IMG/VR virus record: IMGVR_UViG_3300035520_000607
Location: 1 to 64,000 of that record
DNA length: 64,000 bases
Source of the DNA: a virus
Lineage: Duplodnaviria > Caudoviricetes
Reading direction: 5' to 3' (one strand)
The notes beneath the pieces were generated by a model that saw only the letters and a program-made list of their open reading frames with translations, did not search any database and was not told the DNA's origin. Below, piece by piece: positions 16,691 through 42,274 of the stretch (within the stretch, counting starts at the first letter, position 1; each line of letters opens with the position of its first letter). The position numbers were made by a program, and so were the translations under genes.

Positions 16691-16822
16691 AATGGCAATT
16701 TATTAAGAAATCTTATGTCTTAGGTCAGGTAGAATTTCTCCAAAGCTTACTTTTCGTTACCAAAAAGCACTTTCGTTTTAAAAGCCTGATATGCGGTCTC
16801 CCTACATACGACCTGATTGCCA
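16691..16822 (-). ncRNA. Candidate structured RNA
   Basis: TGGCAAT/ATTGCCA closing stem with nested AGGTC/GACCT stem. Confidence 0.35.
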
Positions 16823-16919
16823 CTTAGTACATACTTTATCCCAATAAATATCGCTCTAGAAGTTTTCCTTGACAATAATTTGTCTTAAAACTAGAATAAC
16901 GCGCCATCATAAAATAAAT

Positions 16920-16997
16920 TGGAGCGAGTAGTAGGGACTTAAACCCTCATCTTAAGCTTGGACAGCTTGTGTTCTTACCAAATTAAACTATACCCGC
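16920..16997 (-). tRNA. tRNA-Gly(UCC), atypical
   Basis: GCGGGTA/TACTCGC, U73, CCA; loop TGTCCAA (G33); imperfect T arm. Confidence 0.75.
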
Positions 16998-17792: not shown

Positions 17793-18232
17793 TGGTGGAG
17801 CTGCGGGGGCTTGAACCCCGGTCCTGAAACTACAATTATATTAGAAATCTCATTCTTACATTACAAGTTTTATCCTATTTATAGGAGTCAGAGTGACGAT
17901 TCGATCCCTACCTCATTATGTTCACTCACGTTCAGAGAGGGCTTCTATATTAAATTAATCACAATAGCAAATCATATAGAAGAAAAATTTACTATGGGTA
18001 ATCTTTGCGGTTAATACGACTGCATTTTCCCTGATTACTTACTGGTACTAATGTAGAAGTTACTTAGCTTTTAATTAAGCAAAAGCTACGCAATTAGATG
18101 CGAATAAAGATTTAACCTTATTAGTAATTTTTGTTAAAATGTTGTTATTTATTTTTTATTGCCTTTTAAGTATCTGCCTACTACTTGTATTCTAATACTT
18201 TATAATTTCAGTCGAAACCATATTTCAACCCC
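17793..18232 (-). ncRNA. ssrA: tmRNA
   Basis: 5' GGGGTTG...TTCGAC, 3' T arm and CAGCTCCACCA with G3.U70; internal tag frame ...NNNILTKITNKVKSLFASNCVAFA-TAA (stop 18075-18077). Confidence 0.93.
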
Positions 18233-18241
18233 AAATTAAGA

Positions 18242-18316
18242 TGGTGGAGCTACGCAGAATTGAACTGCGATTTACTGCTTGCAGGGCAGTCGTAATAGCC
18301 ATTATACCATAGCCCC
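18242..18316 (-). tRNA. tRNA-Ala(UGC)
   Basis: GGGGCTA/TAGCTCC with G3.U70; loop CCTGCAA (C33); CCA. Confidence 0.9.
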
Positions 18317-18317
18317 A

Positions 18318-18891
18318 TGGTTCCTGAGGTGAGATTTGAACTCACGATTTCCGACTTCTTGTTCTTATTCGGTCAACATTGGTAAAATATACTTTTCAAC
18401 TGTAAAATCTTTTATTAAATTACAATTACTCTTAGCTCCATATTGAGGAAGTTCTTTTCTAAATATTTTACTGTTAGTATTACTAATTAAATCAACTGGA
18501 ATAACTACAAGTTGATTATCAATAATACTAACTATAAAATCTATTTGTTTATTGTTATAATGCTTAATTATATTTTTATTAATCGTAGCAACGCTATTAG
18601 CAGTTTTAATTGTATAACTACCATTTTCTTCTAAATGAGCTGTTTTACACTGTATTCTAATATAATGACCATTTCCACCGTCTAATAATAAATCATATCT
18701 ACTATTATTTCCATATGGAATTGATACAATAAACCCATATTGTATAAATTTTTCTATACATTGTAATTCTGTTGTTAACCCTTTTATTTGAGTTTCATTA
18801 AATAAATTTGGAATAATTATCATCTCCTTAATTTACTAATGAACCGATTTTAAACATGAGGACGGCGAGATAACCACTTCTCTACTCAGGG
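18318..18891 (-). tRNA. tRNA-Met(CAU), fMet-like, split by a 498-nt insert (exons 18891-18856 and 18357-18318)
   Basis: Joined halves: CCCTGAG TA GAGA-AGTGGTTA-TCTC G CCGTC CTCAT|AA GTCGG AAATC GTGAG-TTCAAAT-CTCAC CTCAGGA A CCA; C1.A72 mismatch. Confidence 0.85.
18365..18823 (-). CDS. PD-(D/E)XK homing endonuclease (PDDEXK_5 / I-Ssp6803I-like) inside the tRNA insert
   Basis: KG..TE, YGF.VSIPYG...RYDLLLD, RIQCKT, Y...QIDF motifs. Confidence 0.85.
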   Translation of the reverse strand: MIIIPNLFNETQIKGLTTELQCIEKFIQYGFIVSIPYGNNSRYDLLLDGGNGHYIRIQCKTAHLEENGSYTIKTANSVATINKNIIKHYNNKQIDFIVSIIDNQLVVIPVDLISNTNSKIFRKELPQYGAKSNCNLIKDFTVEKYILPMLTE

Positions 18892-18919
18892 GTAAAGGAG
18901 ATATTACTCCTAATCTTTA

Positions 18920-19141
18920 TTATTTATTTTTATATTTCTTTCCACTTCTAGCTGGATGTTCCTTTGCATAAGCTGCAGCCGCTTCTTTTATTCTCTTTCC
19001 TTCTGGAGTTAAATACTTAGCTGCTTGTGGATTTCTTTTAAGTTTCTTATTAGTTTTTTGTTTTTTATCTAAGTTGCGTTGAGTGATCTCGTATTGAGCT
19101 TCTCCGCTACCTGATTTTTTCTTGCTTTTTGCCATATTCAA
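18920..19141 (-). CDS. Small highly basic protein
   Basis: Lys-rich ORF with promoter and AAAGGAG RBS. Confidence 0.7.
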   Translation of the reverse strand: MNMAKSKKKSGSGEAQYEITQRNLDKKQKTNKKLKRNPQAAKYLTPEGKRIKEAAAAYAKEHPARSGKKYKNK

Positions 19142-24146: not shown

Positions 24147-25403
24147 ATGATTAATCCAAGCACAAAGCAACGTGAACTAGCTTATGTAGTCCGCATAGAT
24201 AGAATAGAACCTATTGAAGGCTCAGATAACTGCGAAGCTGCCGTAGTAGGTGGCTGGAAAGTTATGGTTCGTAAAGAAACATTTAAGGCAGGAGAATTAG
24301 CAGTTTATTTTGAGATAGATTCAAAAGTACCAGAAACTGAAACCTATGCATTTTTAGCTCCAAAACATTATAAAGTTAAAACTCAAAAATATACATTCGG
24401 CGGAAAAGGTAACTTTGTAAGTCAAGGTTTATTAATGACTTTTAAAGATTTCTATGTCAATGGCGGATGCCCTGCATGGCAAGCAGAACTAATAAGTAGA
24501 ATTCAATGCGGGGATACTGATATATCAAATGAATTTTTAACAGAAATATTAGGAGTTACTTATGCTATTGCTGAAGACAACAAAAGAAAAGCATCAATAG
24601 ATAAATATAAGAGAATGGTTCAAAGACATTCTAATCTATTTAAAAAGAATAAATTAGTTAAATGGTTATATAAAAGAGACTGGGGTAAAAAATTATTGTT
24701 TATATTCTTAGGTAAAAAATCAGATAAAAAAGGTTCATTTTGGCCTGAATGGGTAGTAAAAACAAATGAAGAAAGAGTTCAAAATTTACCAAACCTATTC
24801 CCTCCTGATAATACGGAATGGTTTGTAACTGAAAAAGTTGATGGTTCTAGTACAACATTTACTATGAAAAGAAAAAGAAGAAAAGAATATGAATTTTATG
24901 TATGCAGTCGCAACGTATGCTTTGATAAACCTGAGAAGGAAGATAAATTGTTTTATGAAACAAATATATATGCTGAAATGGCTGAAAAGTACCATATAGA
25001 AAAAGTATTGAAAGATATATTAGATAAAAATAAAGATTTCACTTTTGTTACACTTCAGGGTGAAACTTATGGTGAAGGAGTTCAAAAGAAAACATACAAT
25101 ATAAAAGGACATGATTTTAAAGCATTTAACTTAATATATGGCGACAAAAATGGCGTAACTAAAAGATTAAATCCAAGAGAAATGACTGATGTATTAGTAA
25201 ATATTTATAATATACCTTGCGTTCCAATATTAGATGAGCATTTTATATTACCTAATACAATAGAAGAAATGATAGCTTATGCAGATGGTATGTCAGTAAT
25301 AGATCCCGCTTCAATAAGAGAAGGCGTAGTATTAAGAACTGCAGATGGAGTTAATTCATTTAAAAGTGTTAGCAATAACTATTTAATAGAAAAGGGAGAA
25401 TAA
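24147..25403 (+). CDS. ATP-dependent RNA ligase (DRB0094/Rnl5-like)
   Basis: N-term OB domain (IEPIEGSD, GGW.V.V, YFEIDS), KTNEERVQN, TEKVDGSS, QGE, REGVV, FKSVSN.YL. Confidence 0.9.
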   Translation: MINPSTKQRELAYVVRIDRIEPIEGSDNCEAAVVGGWKVMVRKETFKAGELAVYFEIDSKVPETETYAFLAPKHYKVKTQKYTFGGKGNFVSQGLLMTFKDFYVNGGCPAWQAELISRIQCGDTDISNEFLTEILGVTYAIAEDNKRKASIDKYKRMVQRHSNLFKKNKLVKWLYKRDWGKKLLFIFLGKKSDKKGSFWPEWVVKTNEERVQNLPNLFPPDNTEWFVTEKVDGSSTTFTMKRKRRKEYEFYVCSRNVCFDKPEKEDKLFYETNIYAEMAEKYHIEKVLKDILDKNKDFTFVTLQGETYGEGVQKKTYNIKGHDFKAFNLIYGDKNGVTKRLNPREMTDVLVNIYNIPCVPILDEHFILPNTIEEMIAYADGMSVIDPASIREGVVLRTADGVNSFKSVSNNYLIEKGE

Positions 25404-25480
25404 TCATTTTTATTGATTATTCTTTTATTTTTTGTTATAATAAAAGTGTAAAATTATTTGAAAGAAAGGAATTGATAAAG

Positions 25481-25825
25481 ATGGCAAATTTTAAGATGAC
25501 TCAAAGTAGATTCTTCTGCACTCAATGCGGAAAAGAAGGAATTCCTATCTTGAGGAAAGTTGCCCATCAGAGAGAAAATAGACATTTAAAGAAATTATAT
25601 TGTACCTATTGTAAAGAAGAAATTAATCATGCGGAAGTTCGTGAGGGAAGTAGTTACACTTATGAAGATTTTGTAGAAGAATTTAATTTAGGTAGATTTA
25701 AGAACGATGGAACAAGAGATACTGTTGATGAATTAGTATTTTGTTCTAAAATAGATTGTCCTTTCAATAGAGATGGGAAATGTTGGAATTCAAGCAATTC
25801 TGCAAATTGCAAACATAAAATATAG
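25481..25825 (+). CDS. Zn-ribbon protein with ribosomal L33-like pattern
   Basis: CTQCG...HLKKLYCTYCKEEINHAE; extra C-terminal Cys cluster. Confidence 0.6.
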   Translation: MANFKMTQSRFFCTQCGKEGIPILRKVAHQRENRHLKKLYCTYCKEEINHAEVREGSSYTYEDFVEEFNLGRFKNDGTRDTVDELVFCSKIDCPFNRDGKCWNSSNSANCKHKI

Positions 25826-25827
25826 AG

Positions 25828-26349
25828 GTGATTAATATGACATATCTAATGATGATGGCGGGAATCCCTGGTTCAGGGAAAAGCACCCTAGCTAAAAGAT
25901 GGATACCAAAAGGCGATACTAGATATATATCAAGAGATGATATAAGATTCAAAATGATTAAAGATAATGAAGAATATTTCTCAAAAGAAAAAGAAGTATT
26001 TCAAGAGTATTTAAGACAAATAGATGCGGCAATAGCTAAAGGCACTAGATATATATTTGCAGATGCTACACACCTTAACTACAGTAGTCGCAGAAAAGTA
26101 CTATCTCAACTAAAAAATAAACCAGATGTGGTATGTGTATTTTATTTTGATGTTCCTATTGATGTTGCTCTTGAAAGAAATGCACAAAGGACAGGTAAAG
26201 CATTTGTACCAGAAACCGCAATAAGAAATATGTGGAATTCTATGCAATTTCCGCAAGCAGACGAAGGTATAGATATGGTTATTCCAGTAGATGAGAAAGG
26301 TATGCTTCTTTTAGATAAAATAGTTTCATATACCAAGGAGGAGATCTAA
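25828..26349 (+). CDS. Polynucleotide kinase-like P-loop protein (AAA_33)
   Basis: GIPGSGKST, ISRDDIR, DATHL, ERNAQR. Confidence 0.88.
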   Translation: MINMTYLMMMAGIPGSGKSTLAKRWIPKGDTRYISRDDIRFKMIKDNEEYFSKEKEVFQEYLRQIDAAIAKGTRYIFADATHLNYSSRRKVLSQLKNKPDVVCVFYFDVPIDVALERNAQRTGKAFVPETAIRNMWNSMQFPQADEGIDMVIPVDEKGMLLLDKIVSYTKEEI

Positions 26350-26904
26350 ATGATATATTTTACAGCGGATACGCATCTCGGTCATCAAAAAGAATTCTTA
26401 TGGAGACCCCGCGGATTCAGCTCTAGCAAAGAACACGATGAACAAATTATTACAAACTGGAATTCTATTGTTAATCCAAATGATGATGTTTATCATTTAG
26501 GAGATTTAATGTTAGGTGATAATGAATATGGGTTAGAGTGCATTAAACAATTAAATGGCAAAATCCATATCATACTTGGTAATCATGATACAGAAAGCAG
26601 AATAAAATTATATAAAACACTTCCTAATGTGATTGAAATAGTTGATGCTAAGCGATTAAAGTATGGTAAAGCATATTTCTTCTTATGTCATTATCCAGTT
26701 ATTACCGCAAATTATGATGACCAAAAAGCTTGGACGAAACATTTAATTGGAGTTCACGGCCACACGCATCAAAAGGAAAAATTTTATAATAATAATCCAT
26801 ACATGTACTGTGTATGTTTAGATGCTCATGATAATAAGCCTGTATCAATAGAGCAAGTTATTGAAGATATTAAGGAGGAATCATATGATCAAGCTAATAG
26901 ATAG
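26350..26904 (+). CDS. Metallophosphoesterase
   Basis: ADTHLGH, HLGD, GNHD, HYP, HGHTH. Confidence 0.9.
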   Translation: MIYFTADTHLGHQKEFLWRPRGFSSSKEHDEQIITNWNSIVNPNDDVYHLGDLMLGDNEYGLECIKQLNGKIHIILGNHDTESRIKLYKTLPNVIEIVDAKRLKYGKAYFFLCHYPVITANYDDQKAWTKHLIGVHGHTHQKEKFYNNNPYMYCVCLDAHDNKPVSIEQVIEDIKEESYDQANR

Positions 26905-38832: not shown

Positions 38833-39044
38833 AAAAATTTTTGATATAATATATATGAAAGATGAAAGAAAAAGAAAGAATTAAAAAGTTGGCAACTAAT
38901 AGCCCATTTATTTAAGTCAACTTAATATAACTTTTCTTAAATCATCTAAAAGAAAAGCATATATAATTGACAAAATAAAAAATTTTTGATAAAATATATA
39001 TGTAATAAAATATTATAAGAAATTAAAAGGAGAGAAAGAAAATT

Positions 39045-39347
39045 ATGATGAAACCAAATAGTATTTTAGTTTATAACTATGTAAAAGAAAACGGAAGTAA
39101 AAACATTACAGCTGCTGATATAGCTGAAGGAACTGGATTAAATGTAAGAACAGTTAACGGTATCGTTACTGCTGCATTCCAAAGACATACTATCGTTGTA
39201 GATGGAGAAAAAGTTGCTCAACCATTAATGGTTAGAGAACCAGCTGAAATTGAATTAGCAGATAATACCCACCAAATGGTAAAATTTATTAAGTTAACAG
39301 AGGCTGGGGAGTCATTCAACCCTGAAGCATCTGATGACGCTGAATAA
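39045..39347 (+). CDS. Winged-HTH DNA-binding protein
   Basis: ITAADIAEGTGLNVRTVNGIVT...IKLTEAG. Confidence 0.75.
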   Translation: MMKPNSILVYNYVKENGSKNITAADIAEGTGLNVRTVNGIVTAAFQRHTIVVDGEKVAQPLMVREPAEIELADNTHQMVKFIKLTEAGESFNPEASDDAE

Positions 39348-39420
39348 TAAAATAATTAAAAAATAAATAGAGTGATTAATATTCACTCTATTTATTTTAG
39401 AAAGGATAAATTTAACAGAT

Positions 39421-41612
39421 ATGTGAATATTTTTTATAATTATTTTGTTCATTTTAAGCTTAGTTATTTTTTATAAAACTTATAAATTATCACAAAGTAT
39501 AAAAATTATTGAAAATAATAACAATGCAATTAAAATTGAAAGAAAAAAATTAGAGTCAGAGAACAAAAATATACAAAAAGAAATAGATGTAAAAAAATCT
39601 TCATTAGATGCTATTCAAGCCTCATTAGAAAAATTAAAAGAAACATCATGCAAATCATTTGAAGAATATACAAATTTACTTCAATATCAATATCAACAAG
39701 AAGAAAAAGAGTATGACAATGCAATAGACGCTTTAAGACATAGCTATCAACAGTTACAAGATAAATTAAGTGCGGAAATGGGTGAAGCGCGCGAAGATCT
39801 AGAAAAAGTTCGTTCAACGAGAGCCGCCGCAATTCAAGCACAATTAAAAGAACAAGAAATAAAAGATCAACAATCTTTCTATTGCCCTCAAGTGCCTGAA
39901 GACGAGCTTAATGATGCTAGGGCTCTCCGCGCAATAGAATATAAACTTAATAACCCAAGAGTATTAAGAATGCTGATATGGCAAACTTACTATCAAAAGC
40001 CAATTAATCAAGTATGCGCAAATATTTTAGGAGGCGCAACCGCAGTTAAATGTGGAATTTATAAAATAACAAATCAAATTGATGGAATGGTGTATATAGG
40101 TCAAACGGTCAATTAATCGGCCGATGAAAAACTTTACTTACTAGCTGGTAGGGGTTATCTTTTAAGATAGCTAACGAGGAAGGAAAATTTAAAAAATTTT
40201 ATAATCTCGTGGGAAAATTTGGTTAATCCATCCTTTATAAAAATAACATACAATGAAGGGATAAAAATATTTTATAAAGGAGTTAGATATTATGAAAAAA
40301 ATTAATATTAATGATACTACAGTAATAACAGGTATATATTTAATTAAATATCCAAATAGCAAAGTCTATATTGGGCAAGCACAAAATATTCATTTACGAA
40401 TATTAGAACACAATAGTAGAGCTAAAAATAATAGACGCGGAGATGGCAAAAAACCTCAACTATGTGATAGTAAAATACGAAAATATTTTCCTGATGGAGT
40501 AAAAGAATATTATATTTTAGAAGAATGTTTAATAGATAAACTTGATGAGAGAGAAAAGTATTGAATTAATTTATATGATGCACTAAATAAAGAGAAAGGG
40601 TATAATTTTTTAGACAAAGGAGATGTATCTGGACGCAGGGGCGTTGATAATGCCAATGCTTCTTTGACAAAAGAGCAATTAGGGAAAATTATAGATTTAT
40701 TATTAAATCATTATGAGCTTTCTTATAGAGATATTGCTCAACAAGTTGGGACGTCTTTAAGAGTAGTACAAAATATTTCTTGGGGAAAAAGTTATATTAA
40801 TGATAATTTATCTTATCCATTAAGGAACAATATACATAATTTTGCAAAGAAAGATAAAGTAACAGATTATTTTAATTCTGAAGTGTTTTTAATTAATTTA
40901 AAAGAAGATTTAAAATATAGCTGGTGGCTTGCTATAGAAACAGATTTAGTCAATAAATATAAGATACCTCTAAATATTTTAAGAGAAATAAACCATGGAG
41001 AAAAATTCAGTGAAATAGGAGATTATACTTATCCCATAAGAAATAAAAATATAAGAAACAGATATAATTTATCCAAAGAGGATATTATAAATCTATTAAA
41101 TGATTTAAAGAATACTGACATTTCTATGACTGAATTAGGAAAAAAATATGGCTTTGGAAGAGCTGCAATTTCAAACATTAACAAAGGTTTAGCTTATCCA
41201 ATAAAAGGATATAACTATCCTGCTAGATTAACCAAATAACCTGTATCGACTATTCCCTAAGCCTTCTGGGCAGGGAAGTAGGGCTACTATTAGCACGTAG
41301 CAGCATTTTAGGAAACGAAGTGCTTTAAATGCCGAAATGGTTTCCTTTAATTATATAATTAAAGTAAGAAATAGTCAAAGCGATATCGCAACCCGCTGAA
41401 AAAATCATGCTAAGTGCGGATTGGGGATAGATACTCCCGCAGGAAATAAGCTTTATAAAGCTATGCAAGAAGTTGGTCTAGAGAACTTCTCTTTTGAATT
41501 ATTAGAAGAATGTTCAAAAGATGAATTAAATGAGAAAGAAAAATATTATATTGAATTATATCAATCTTATGAATTCGGATATAACTCAAACGCTGGAATA
41601 AAAAAGAATTAG
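39421..41612 (+). CDS. Membrane-anchored coiled-coil protein with C-terminal GIY-YIG domain; spliced exons 39421-40109 and 41381-41612, TGA=Trp at 39424 and 41397
   Basis: Splicing restores CGIYKITN...YIGQTV|DIATR-W-KNHAKCG...LYKAM...NFSFELLEEC...E..YI..Y...GYN. Confidence 0.8.
40110..41380 (+). mobile_element. Group I intron
   Basis: 5' exon ends in U with P1 CGGT/GCCG (U.G); P7 GACTAT (about 41249)/ATAGTC (41371); terminal G; in-frame exon joining. Confidence 0.85.
40292..41239 (+). CDS. Intron-encoded GIY-YIG homing endonuclease with HTH repeats (TGA=Trp at 40562)
   Basis: GIY...VYIGQA..I..R..EH; EREKY-W-INLYD....GYN joins two track ORFs in frame. Confidence 0.85.
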
Positions 41613-41662
41613 TTGATTATAAATGAAAAAAATAATATAATATAATTATAGAAAGGAACTTT

Positions 41663-42274
41663 ATGAAAAATTTTAATAAGAATAAAAGAAATTGTTATGA
41701 ATACTTTATAAAAAATCCTGATTATAAGATTTCTAATCTATTATTAGATAATAGTTTTAATAATAGAGAAATTTCTATTAATAGTATTACTGCGGAAACA
41801 GCTGAACAAATTGATAATTTAATCCGATTATGGAACTCTATTGATGAAGAATCTATTCAAGAAGAAAGAACTCCAATTAAAATTTATATTAATTCATTAG
41901 GCGGATCTTTAAGCGCCGCATTATCAATAGTAGATTCAATAAAATTATCAAGAACGCCAGTTTGTACCATTAATCGCGGAAATGTTTGTAAAGAGAGCTT
42001 TTATATCTTTTTAGCGGGAATGCGTAGATATTCTTACCCTCGTTCAAGTTTCTATTTTGAAAAGGGTTTAAAGCCATTTAATATAAATGACTCTATTGAT
42101 GATAACTATAATGCTTATTGTGATACTATTGCCGCAGAATTAAAATCTATGATCCTAGAGAATACTAAGATTTCAGAATCTGAATATGAAAAGCGTAATG
42201 GTTGGTGGATTACCGCAGAAAAATCTTATGAACTAAAGATAAGTCATGAAGTATTAAGATCAAAATTTTTATAG
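41663..42274 (+). CDS. ClpP-like protein lacking catalytic Ser/His
   Basis: PIKIYINSLGGS...IVDSIK...PV.T...G; AASMG position reads VCKES, IHQP position reads FEKG. Confidence 0.75.
   Translation: MKNFNKNKRNCYEYFIKNPDYKISNLLLDNSFNNREISINSITAETAEQIDNLIRLWNSIDEESIQEERTPIKIYINSLGGSLSAALSIVDSIKLSRTPVCTINRGNVCKESFYIFLAGMRRYSYPRSSFYFEKGLKPFNINDSIDDNYNAYCDTIAAELKSMILENTKISESEYEKRNGWWITAEKSYELKISHEVLRSKFL

Follow-up and report, generated by a model that had tools for sequence, protein, structure and literature searches.

A split tRNA-Met gene and the phage elements related to it

We analyzed a 64,000-nt stretch of DNA (the window; positions 1 to 64,000 of the IMG/VR record IMGVR_UViG_3300035520_000607, Duplodnaviria; Caudoviricetes), which belongs to a 123.6-kb phage contig that is 83% complete; genes of this contig other than the one under study were translated with genetic code 4, TGA being read as Trp. 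Using ARAGORN with introns allowed, we found on the minus strand a tRNA-Met(CAU) gene that is split at position 36/37 by a 498-nt insert, whereas ARAGORN in its default mode missed the gene. The split gene heads a tRNA array, in which tRNA-Ala starts 1 nt downstream and is followed by a tmRNA and more tRNAs, and it is the only CAU tRNA on the contig. The features are as follows.

18856..18891 (-), tRNA-Met(CAU) exon 1, 36 nt (positions 1-36), ending with the anticodon CAU; C1 is opposite A72, an initiator-like mismatch
18358..18855 (-), 498-nt intron-like insert at tRNA position 36/37
18318..18357 (-), tRNA-Met exon 2, 40 nt (positions 37-76), CCA encoded
18365..18823 (-), homing endonuclease ORF (459 nt, 152 aa), PD-(D/E)XK of the I-Ssp6803I family, with the Shine-Dalgarno (SD) sequence AAGGAG at 18829-18824
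18852..18856 (-), rod helix H2, 5' strand: U36 plus insert nt 1-4 (UGUUU)
18360..18364 (-), rod helix H2, 3' strand (GAACA)
18358..18360 (-), last three insert nt, AAG, facing the anticodon
18842..18847 (-), rod helix H3, 5' strand (UCGGUU), just upstream of the SD
18369..18374 (-), rod helix H3, 3' strand (GACCGA), the last codons of the ORF just upstream of its stop codon
24147..25403 (+), RNA ligase (PF09414 plus PHA02142 OB fold), candidate sealing enzyme
25828..26904 (+), P-loop kinase (AAA_33; 25828-26349) and calcineurin-like phosphoesterase (26350-26904), candidate RNA end-healing enzymes

The ORF leaves 32 nt of non-coding sequence on its 5' side and 7 nt on its 3' side. It matched PF11645 (PDDEXK_5) with an E value of 2e-19 and I-Ssp6803I (PDB 2OST) with an E value of 1e-6, the YD...D and IQCK/VQVK (QxK) motifs being aligned, and residues D44, D48, Q58, and K60 were invariant in 26 homologs. 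The predicted structure (pLDDT 87) matched 2OST with TM scores of 0.71-0.80, followed by EcoRV and Hjc, and an EndA-like fold was not among the Foldseek hits. Cleavage of DNA by the enzyme was not assayed. These data indicated that the observation behind the original prediction, a tRNA-Met gene with two intact halves that is split just 3' of its CAU anticodon by an insert almost filled with a PD-(D/E)XK ORF, is real, and the coordinates and the lengths of the flanks were exactly as had been given. The 1-nt ambiguity of the junction is best resolved as 36/37, which gives the loop CUCAUAA and agrees with all relatives. Nevertheless, the spliced window tRNA has a U30xU40 mismatch in the anticodon stem besides the initiator-like C1xA72. 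The group I intron near 40110, whose core had served as the comparison in the original prediction, was not detected by Rfam in window 39000-42000, in either a 3-kb or a 0.9-kb slice.

Since ARAGORN does produce spurious intron calls (13 of 14 such calls on other loci looked spurious), we tested if the split gene belongs to a family. A search of viral contigs with the single protein found nothing, whereas alignment-based scans found relatives; 193 protein clusters resembled the ORF, and 41 loci (designated L) were fetched. The split gene of the window is not such a chance call: about 20 distinct lineages showed a tRNA-Met(CAU) split at 36/37 by a 467-516-nt insert almost filled by this ORF. They come from gut and rumen phage contigs of 50-165 kb, endonuclease identity falls to 47%, some read TAG as a sense codon within the ORF, and the ORF is intact in nearly all of them, while the host tRNAs differ widely and include both initiator-like and elongator-like bodies. 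A 14-mer scan for the 5' junction gave mostly chance hits (3 of 116 were real). Comparison with intron-less alleles, which had been suggested in advance as a check, revealed uninterrupted phage tRNA-Met genes with exactly the junction predicted for the commonest type (that of locus L001) in 25 viral contigs, but none in IMG/VR for the window allele. ORF-less mini-introns with the same ends and an interior of 8-38 nt were not found in IMG/VR either. Short contigs holding homologs (519-574 nt) were considered as possible excised-intron RNAs, but they are labelled metagenomic DNA and include exon sequence.

Other arrangements were found among the relatives and their neighbors. Relatives of the enzyme are free-standing next to intact tRNA-Met genes in L012 and L038, and in L018 (520-1089) a distant PF11645 gene lies between the 5' half of one tRNA-Met and a complete, different tRNA-Met, which looks like a cassette that split a tRNA and brought a replacement. 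In L106 (5226-5770), ARAGORN called a 470-nt insert at 35/36 of a tRNA-Asp(GUC) in the phage whose contig also starts with a Met-type insert; its ends have a perfect 12-bp closing helix but do not obviously follow the anticodon rule described below. A weak HDV-like ribozyme match (RF02682, 26 bits, E 0.013) at L001:1993-2052, and also in L003, starts exactly at the 3' end of the split tRNA-Met, which lacks an encoded CCA there, and it may be a tRNA 3'-end-processing ribozyme of the kind described for gut phages. In the window itself, the tmRNA (RF00023, 51.8 bits; 17793-18232, -) lies between tRNA-Ala and tRNA-Ser and was not called by ARAGORN, and an OLE RNA (RF01071) match of 105.6 bits (E 1e-26) over model positions 283-595 lies at 16697-16935 (-), inside the tRNA cluster and abutting a tRNA at 16923-16997, although OLE RNA is known from extremophilic and anaerobic Firmicutes, not from phages.

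Ribozyme search and the terminal RNA rod

To test if a group I core is present, a search that had been named beforehand as the way to check the claim, we scanned the inserts with Rfam at permissive settings. No Intron_gpI (RF00028) or other ribozyme family was found at E<=10 in window 18200-19000, and none was found in the L001 insert or in the 678-nt insert of L035. In contrast, the same settings and slice size yielded 61.1 bits (E 7e-15) for RF00028 on the tRNA-Leu(UAA) intron of the related locus L003, about 300 nt downstream of its split tRNA-Met, so the negative result is meaningful. A 16-kb scan had missed this 61-bit core, and we therefore relied only on slices of 1 kb or less. This tRNA-Leu(UAA) carries an 886-891-nt intron with a bona fide group I core and a 207-aa ORF in L003 (2270-3247) and L005, while the sister contigs L001, L002, and L006 have the same tRNA uninterrupted, a presence/absence polymorphism next to the tRNA-Met insert. 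The extra 200 nt or so in the L035/L036 insert is a secondary insertion with a 63-aa reverse-strand ORF that truncates the endonuclease gene, not a ribozyme.

Only 39 nt of the window insert are non-coding, against about 200 nt in the 655-nt group I intron of the Synechocystis PCC 6803 tRNA-fMet gene, which has a 150-aa ORF (PMC1995217, Table 1). A core hidden in the ORF is unlikely, as synonymous-codon identity along the ORF among 16 diverged copies was 0.47-0.81 (mean, 0.62) with no long constrained block, and RNAalifold on 16 whole genes returned only the cloverleaf and the terminal rod, with no covarying helices in the ORF. As to the group I hallmarks of a 5' exon ending in U wobble-paired to a G of an internal guide (P1) and an intron ending in G, U at -1 and a terminal G were present in 16/16 Met-type inserts; however, U36 pairs with an A of the insert's 3' end, no conserved guide sequence exists, and a related insert in tRNA-Lys ends in A, so that the observations on this feature point both ways. 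GTP-dependent self-splicing was not assayed.

The insert ends were found to pair with each other, as had been proposed, UGUUU/GAACA being 18856-18852 with 18364-18360 and UCGGUU/GACCGA being 18847-18842 with 18374-18369, and all families fold in the same way. After the anticodon stem, U33 pairs with A37 and C34 with the last insert G, while A35 faces an A; U36 and insert nt 1-4 then pair with insert nt -3 to -7 (H2), a 4x4 loop follows (AAUG/AGAA; AAAA/AUAA in the window), and a variable helix, H3, closes the ORF. Covariation in this terminal helix, another test set out in advance, was strong: on the 16-sequence alignment 98% of cells were paired, 9 of 13 pairs showed double changes, and the covariation score was 0.456 against 0.184 for shuffles (0/500) and at most 0.13 when partners were slid. 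H2 covaries among relatives (UAUUC/GAAUA, UAUCG/CGAUA, UAUCA/UGAUA), and all 6 pairs of H3 show double compensatory changes. The termini are nearly invariant down to 47% endonuclease identity, with CAU followed across the 5' junction by AUUCAAUGU and the insert ending in AAGAAGAAUAAG before the AA of exon 2; the A and G of the last three insert nt were invariant in 16/16 aligned families. These results indicated that the rod is under selection.

Next, we examined phage G002, a 165.7-kb record that holds L014 and carries three PF11645-only inserts, in tRNA-Met (512 nt), tRNA-Lys(UUU) (495 nt), and tRNA-Pro(UGG) (472 nt). ARAGORN also called 852-nt and 735-nt inserts in a UCA suppressor-like tRNA and in tRNA-Trp of this phage, which were not examined; besides the Met insert of L014, the calls in this phage lie at L197:14281-14851, at L198:4032-4581, and at about 157940-158874 and 160023-160847 of the record. 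In all three PF11645-only cases the insert can be placed at 36/37, nt 37 pairs with nt 33, the first insert nt continue the helix, and the last three insert nt are the near-complement of the anticodon (AAG, AAA, and CUG, respectively). The two splice sites therefore lie three layers apart on opposite strands of one helix, so cutting both would leave the anticodon as a 3-nt 3' overhang. The Lys insert ends in A, which argues against group I chemistry. We see no DNA-level insertion event that would produce a 3' end that changes with the anticodon, and this points to an RNA-level role at the anticodon.

State of the exons and candidate processing enzymes

The evidence on whether the tRNA is kept working is mixed. 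Of 23 distinct tRNAs spliced in silico, 13 had no internal stem mismatch, against 64% of unsplit phage tRNAs, and exons look functional in most lineages. The syntenic pair L013/L017 (ORF 93.8% identical) differs in its exons by two compensatory pairs, one of which (29:41) straddles the insert, plus one G-U-compatible change, and the neighboring tRNA-Pro has changed at the same rate. In the complete 120-kb genome G001, with 22 tRNAs, the split gene is the only tRNA-Met. No sequencing runs were listed for window 18200-19000, and no spliced RNA has been seen. On the other hand, decay of the exons in homologs, which had been named at the outset as an outcome that would count against splicing, was partly observed: L009-L011 keep the ORF, but the anticodon-stem 5' strand is deleted, the T arm is gone, and the last insert G has become A, and decay is probable in L032, which is unrecognizable as a tRNA, and in L035, which has two T-stem mismatches and a broken endonuclease gene. 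Elements with 85-87% identical endonucleases sit in quite different tRNA-Met genes with different anticodon stems (L014, L023, L025), so the element, or its interior, moves without exon co-conversion.

The RNA ligase, kinase, and phosphoesterase invoked in the original prediction do lie at 24147-26904. PF09414 matches occurred in 6 of 8 insert-bearing virus records, against 2 of 10 control phages with an unsplit tRNA-Met, and cassette homologs occurred in genomes G001-G004. This is weak support, since the records are related to each other and RNA repair cassettes are common in large phages as a counter to host anticodon nucleases. Searches of the contig revealed no EndA (PF01974, for which the archaeal controls were found), RNase III, or RtcB; thus no cutting enzyme is identified, and the host is not known.

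Possible routes of processing and relation to known systems

The element is a mobile one, made only of an I-Ssp6803I-type homing endonuclease gene and about 40 nt of structured RNA, and we regard it as a ribozyme-less relative of the tRNA-fMet group I intron. The interpretation that it is a protein-spliced mobile tRNA intron was only partly supported: no group I core was detected and the insert ends extend the anticodon stem into a helix that loops out the ORF, but neither splicing of the RNA nor an involvement of the phage ligase, kinase, and phosphoesterase was shown. What our analysis established at the RNA level is the structure, while its processing and any link of the repair enzymes to the insert are inferred, and the events at the DNA level are inferred from the endonuclease family, namely, that the enzyme cuts uninterrupted tRNA-Met genes of co-infecting phages in the anticodon region and the element is copied in during repair. 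Our leading reading, held tentatively, is that the rod is a processing signal read by enzymes in trans. In this view the element does not splice itself; one or more endonucleases (host, RNase P-like, or the element's own enzyme) would cut both sites, and an RNA ligase would reseal the anticodon loop, either the phage's own at 24147-25403, helped by the neighboring kinase and phosphoesterase if the ends need healing, or a host RtcB. The lack of a detectable ribozyme, the selected rod, the 3' end that tracks the anticodon, the exons of most lineages, and the repair cassette favor this reading, whereas the endonuclease model resembles DNA enzymes only and some lineages keep the ORF in a dead tRNA. 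A more far-reaching possibility, which we consider unlikely, is that the homing endonuclease itself also cuts the pre-tRNA rod at both splice sites, the center and left half of the rod being an RNA copy of its DNA target with the same 3-nt 3' stagger (I-Ssp6803I leaves a 3-nt 3' overhang on DNA); this would leave 3'-OH and 5'-phosphate ends that the phage ligase seals directly, and it would be a protein-only tRNA splicing system in bacterial viruses, parallel to archaeal EndA plus ligase.

Selfish disruption without splicing is nearly as likely as the leading reading. The endonuclease gene would have homed into a dispensable phage tRNA gene, and the rod would serve the element itself, by letting the split precursor fold like a tRNA so that the operon is processed and the endonuclease mRNA released and stabilized, or as an RNA copy of the enzyme's DNA target for autoregulation. 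The decayed exons, the U30xU40 mismatch, the free-standing or replacement-bearing relatives, and the fact that no splicing machinery was found in the contig are consistent with this, and intact exons could simply reflect recent invasion, given that similar elements sit in different tRNA-Met genes. However, it does not readily explain invariant termini abutting both splice sites, and it does not explain the terminal triplet that changes with the anticodon in the Met, Lys, and Pro inserts or the compensatory exon changes in L013/L017; it also requires many precise invasions with no co-conversion even 2-5 nt from the site, and the split gene is the only tRNA-Met of a complete genome. Cryptic RNA catalysis in cis, in which the rod, with or without the tRNA body, is a small unrecognized self-cleaving or self-splicing motif, appears unlikely. 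Conserved nucleotides do sit in internal loops (AAUG/AGAA, A35 opposite A) between covarying helices, as is typical of small ribozymes, the 5' exon ends in U and the insert in G in all 16 Met-type families, and a kinase and a phosphoesterase beside the ligase fit cyclic-phosphate ends, since mere cleavage would leave 2',3'-cyclic phosphate and 5'-OH ends to be healed and sealed by these enzymes or by RtcB. Nevertheless, no Rfam ribozyme family matched inside the insert, the conserved loop is not shared by the Lys and Pro inserts, and about 40 nt forming a nearly continuous helix leaves little room for an active site. An ordinary group I intron whose core overlaps the ORF is very unlikely: it shares the enzyme family and tRNA site of the Synechocystis intron and the U and G of Met-type inserts, but the Rfam search with its positive control, the synonymous sites, the lack of covarying helices in the ORF, and the lack of a conserved guide sequence argue against it.

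Other motifs were considered and rejected. A P1 formed with the SD region is not conserved, an 11-nt tetraloop-receptor reading of the 3' end is incompatible with the covariation, and hairpin-ribozyme loop A shares AGAA but lacks the essential G+1, the loop not being at a splice site. RNase III would leave a 2-nt stagger and give an 8-nt or 6-nt loop. A bulge-helix-bulge (BHB) motif does not fit, because the consensus fold is a near-continuous helix with one A/A mismatch and a 4x4 loop and has no 3-nt bulges around a 4-bp helix.

Compared with the Synechocystis intron encoding I-Ssp6803I, the element has the same endonuclease family, the same kind of host gene (a CAU-anticodon tRNA), a position in the anticodon loop next to the anticodon, and, in Met-type inserts, an exon-terminal U and an insert-terminal G, but about 200 nt of ribozyme is missing, no conserved P1 guide sequence exists, the two insert ends pair instead with each other and with the anticodon, and it is found in phages, not cyanobacteria. 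Archaeal BHB introns, some of which carry homing endonuclease genes and which are cut by EndA and sealed by RtcB, likewise have an insert that pairs with the anticodon, an ORF looped out of a helix that brings the two splice sites together on opposite strands, and no ribozyme, so that removal would need proteins; here there is no BHB motif, no EndA was found in the phage contig, and bacteria and their phages are not known to have this pathway. Phage T4 Pnkp/Rnl1, a phage-encoded kinase/phosphatase plus RNA ligase which repairs anticodon-loop breaks made by PrrC, provides the chemistry needed for the last step, and a comparable cassette lies at 24147-26904, but that system repairs damage done by host defense and is not known to remove an insert, and the ligase here belongs to a different family (PF09414 with an N-terminal OB fold). 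Free-standing homing endonuclease genes in phage tRNA clusters (T4 SegB type) and cassettes that bring a replacement tRNA have counterparts among the relatives of this enzyme (L012, L038, L018), whereas the window element lies inside the tRNA, carries no replacement, and has conserved structured ends. We found no paper describing this class of insert; Williams 2020 catalogues only tRNA introns that have a group I core.

Bacteria and their viruses are thought to remove tRNA introns only by self-splicing group I ribozymes, and protein-dependent tRNA splicing is regarded as an archaeal and eukaryotic trait. The element described here keeps the endonuclease family and the tRNA site of the textbook cyanobacterial tRNA-fMet group I intron but has a 40-nt rod in place of the ribozyme, and the same design recurs in Met, Lys, and Pro tRNAs of related phages, with an end that tracks the anticodon. 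In either case, standard tRNA annotation misses these genes. If the tRNA is restored, phages have a protein-dependent splicing pathway, which bears on the old proposal that BHB introns descend from group I introns and would give phage RNA ligases a housekeeping job beyond repair. If the tRNA is not restored, this is a clear case of a homing endonuclease spreading by sacrificing tRNA genes while keeping an elaborate RNA structure for its own ends.
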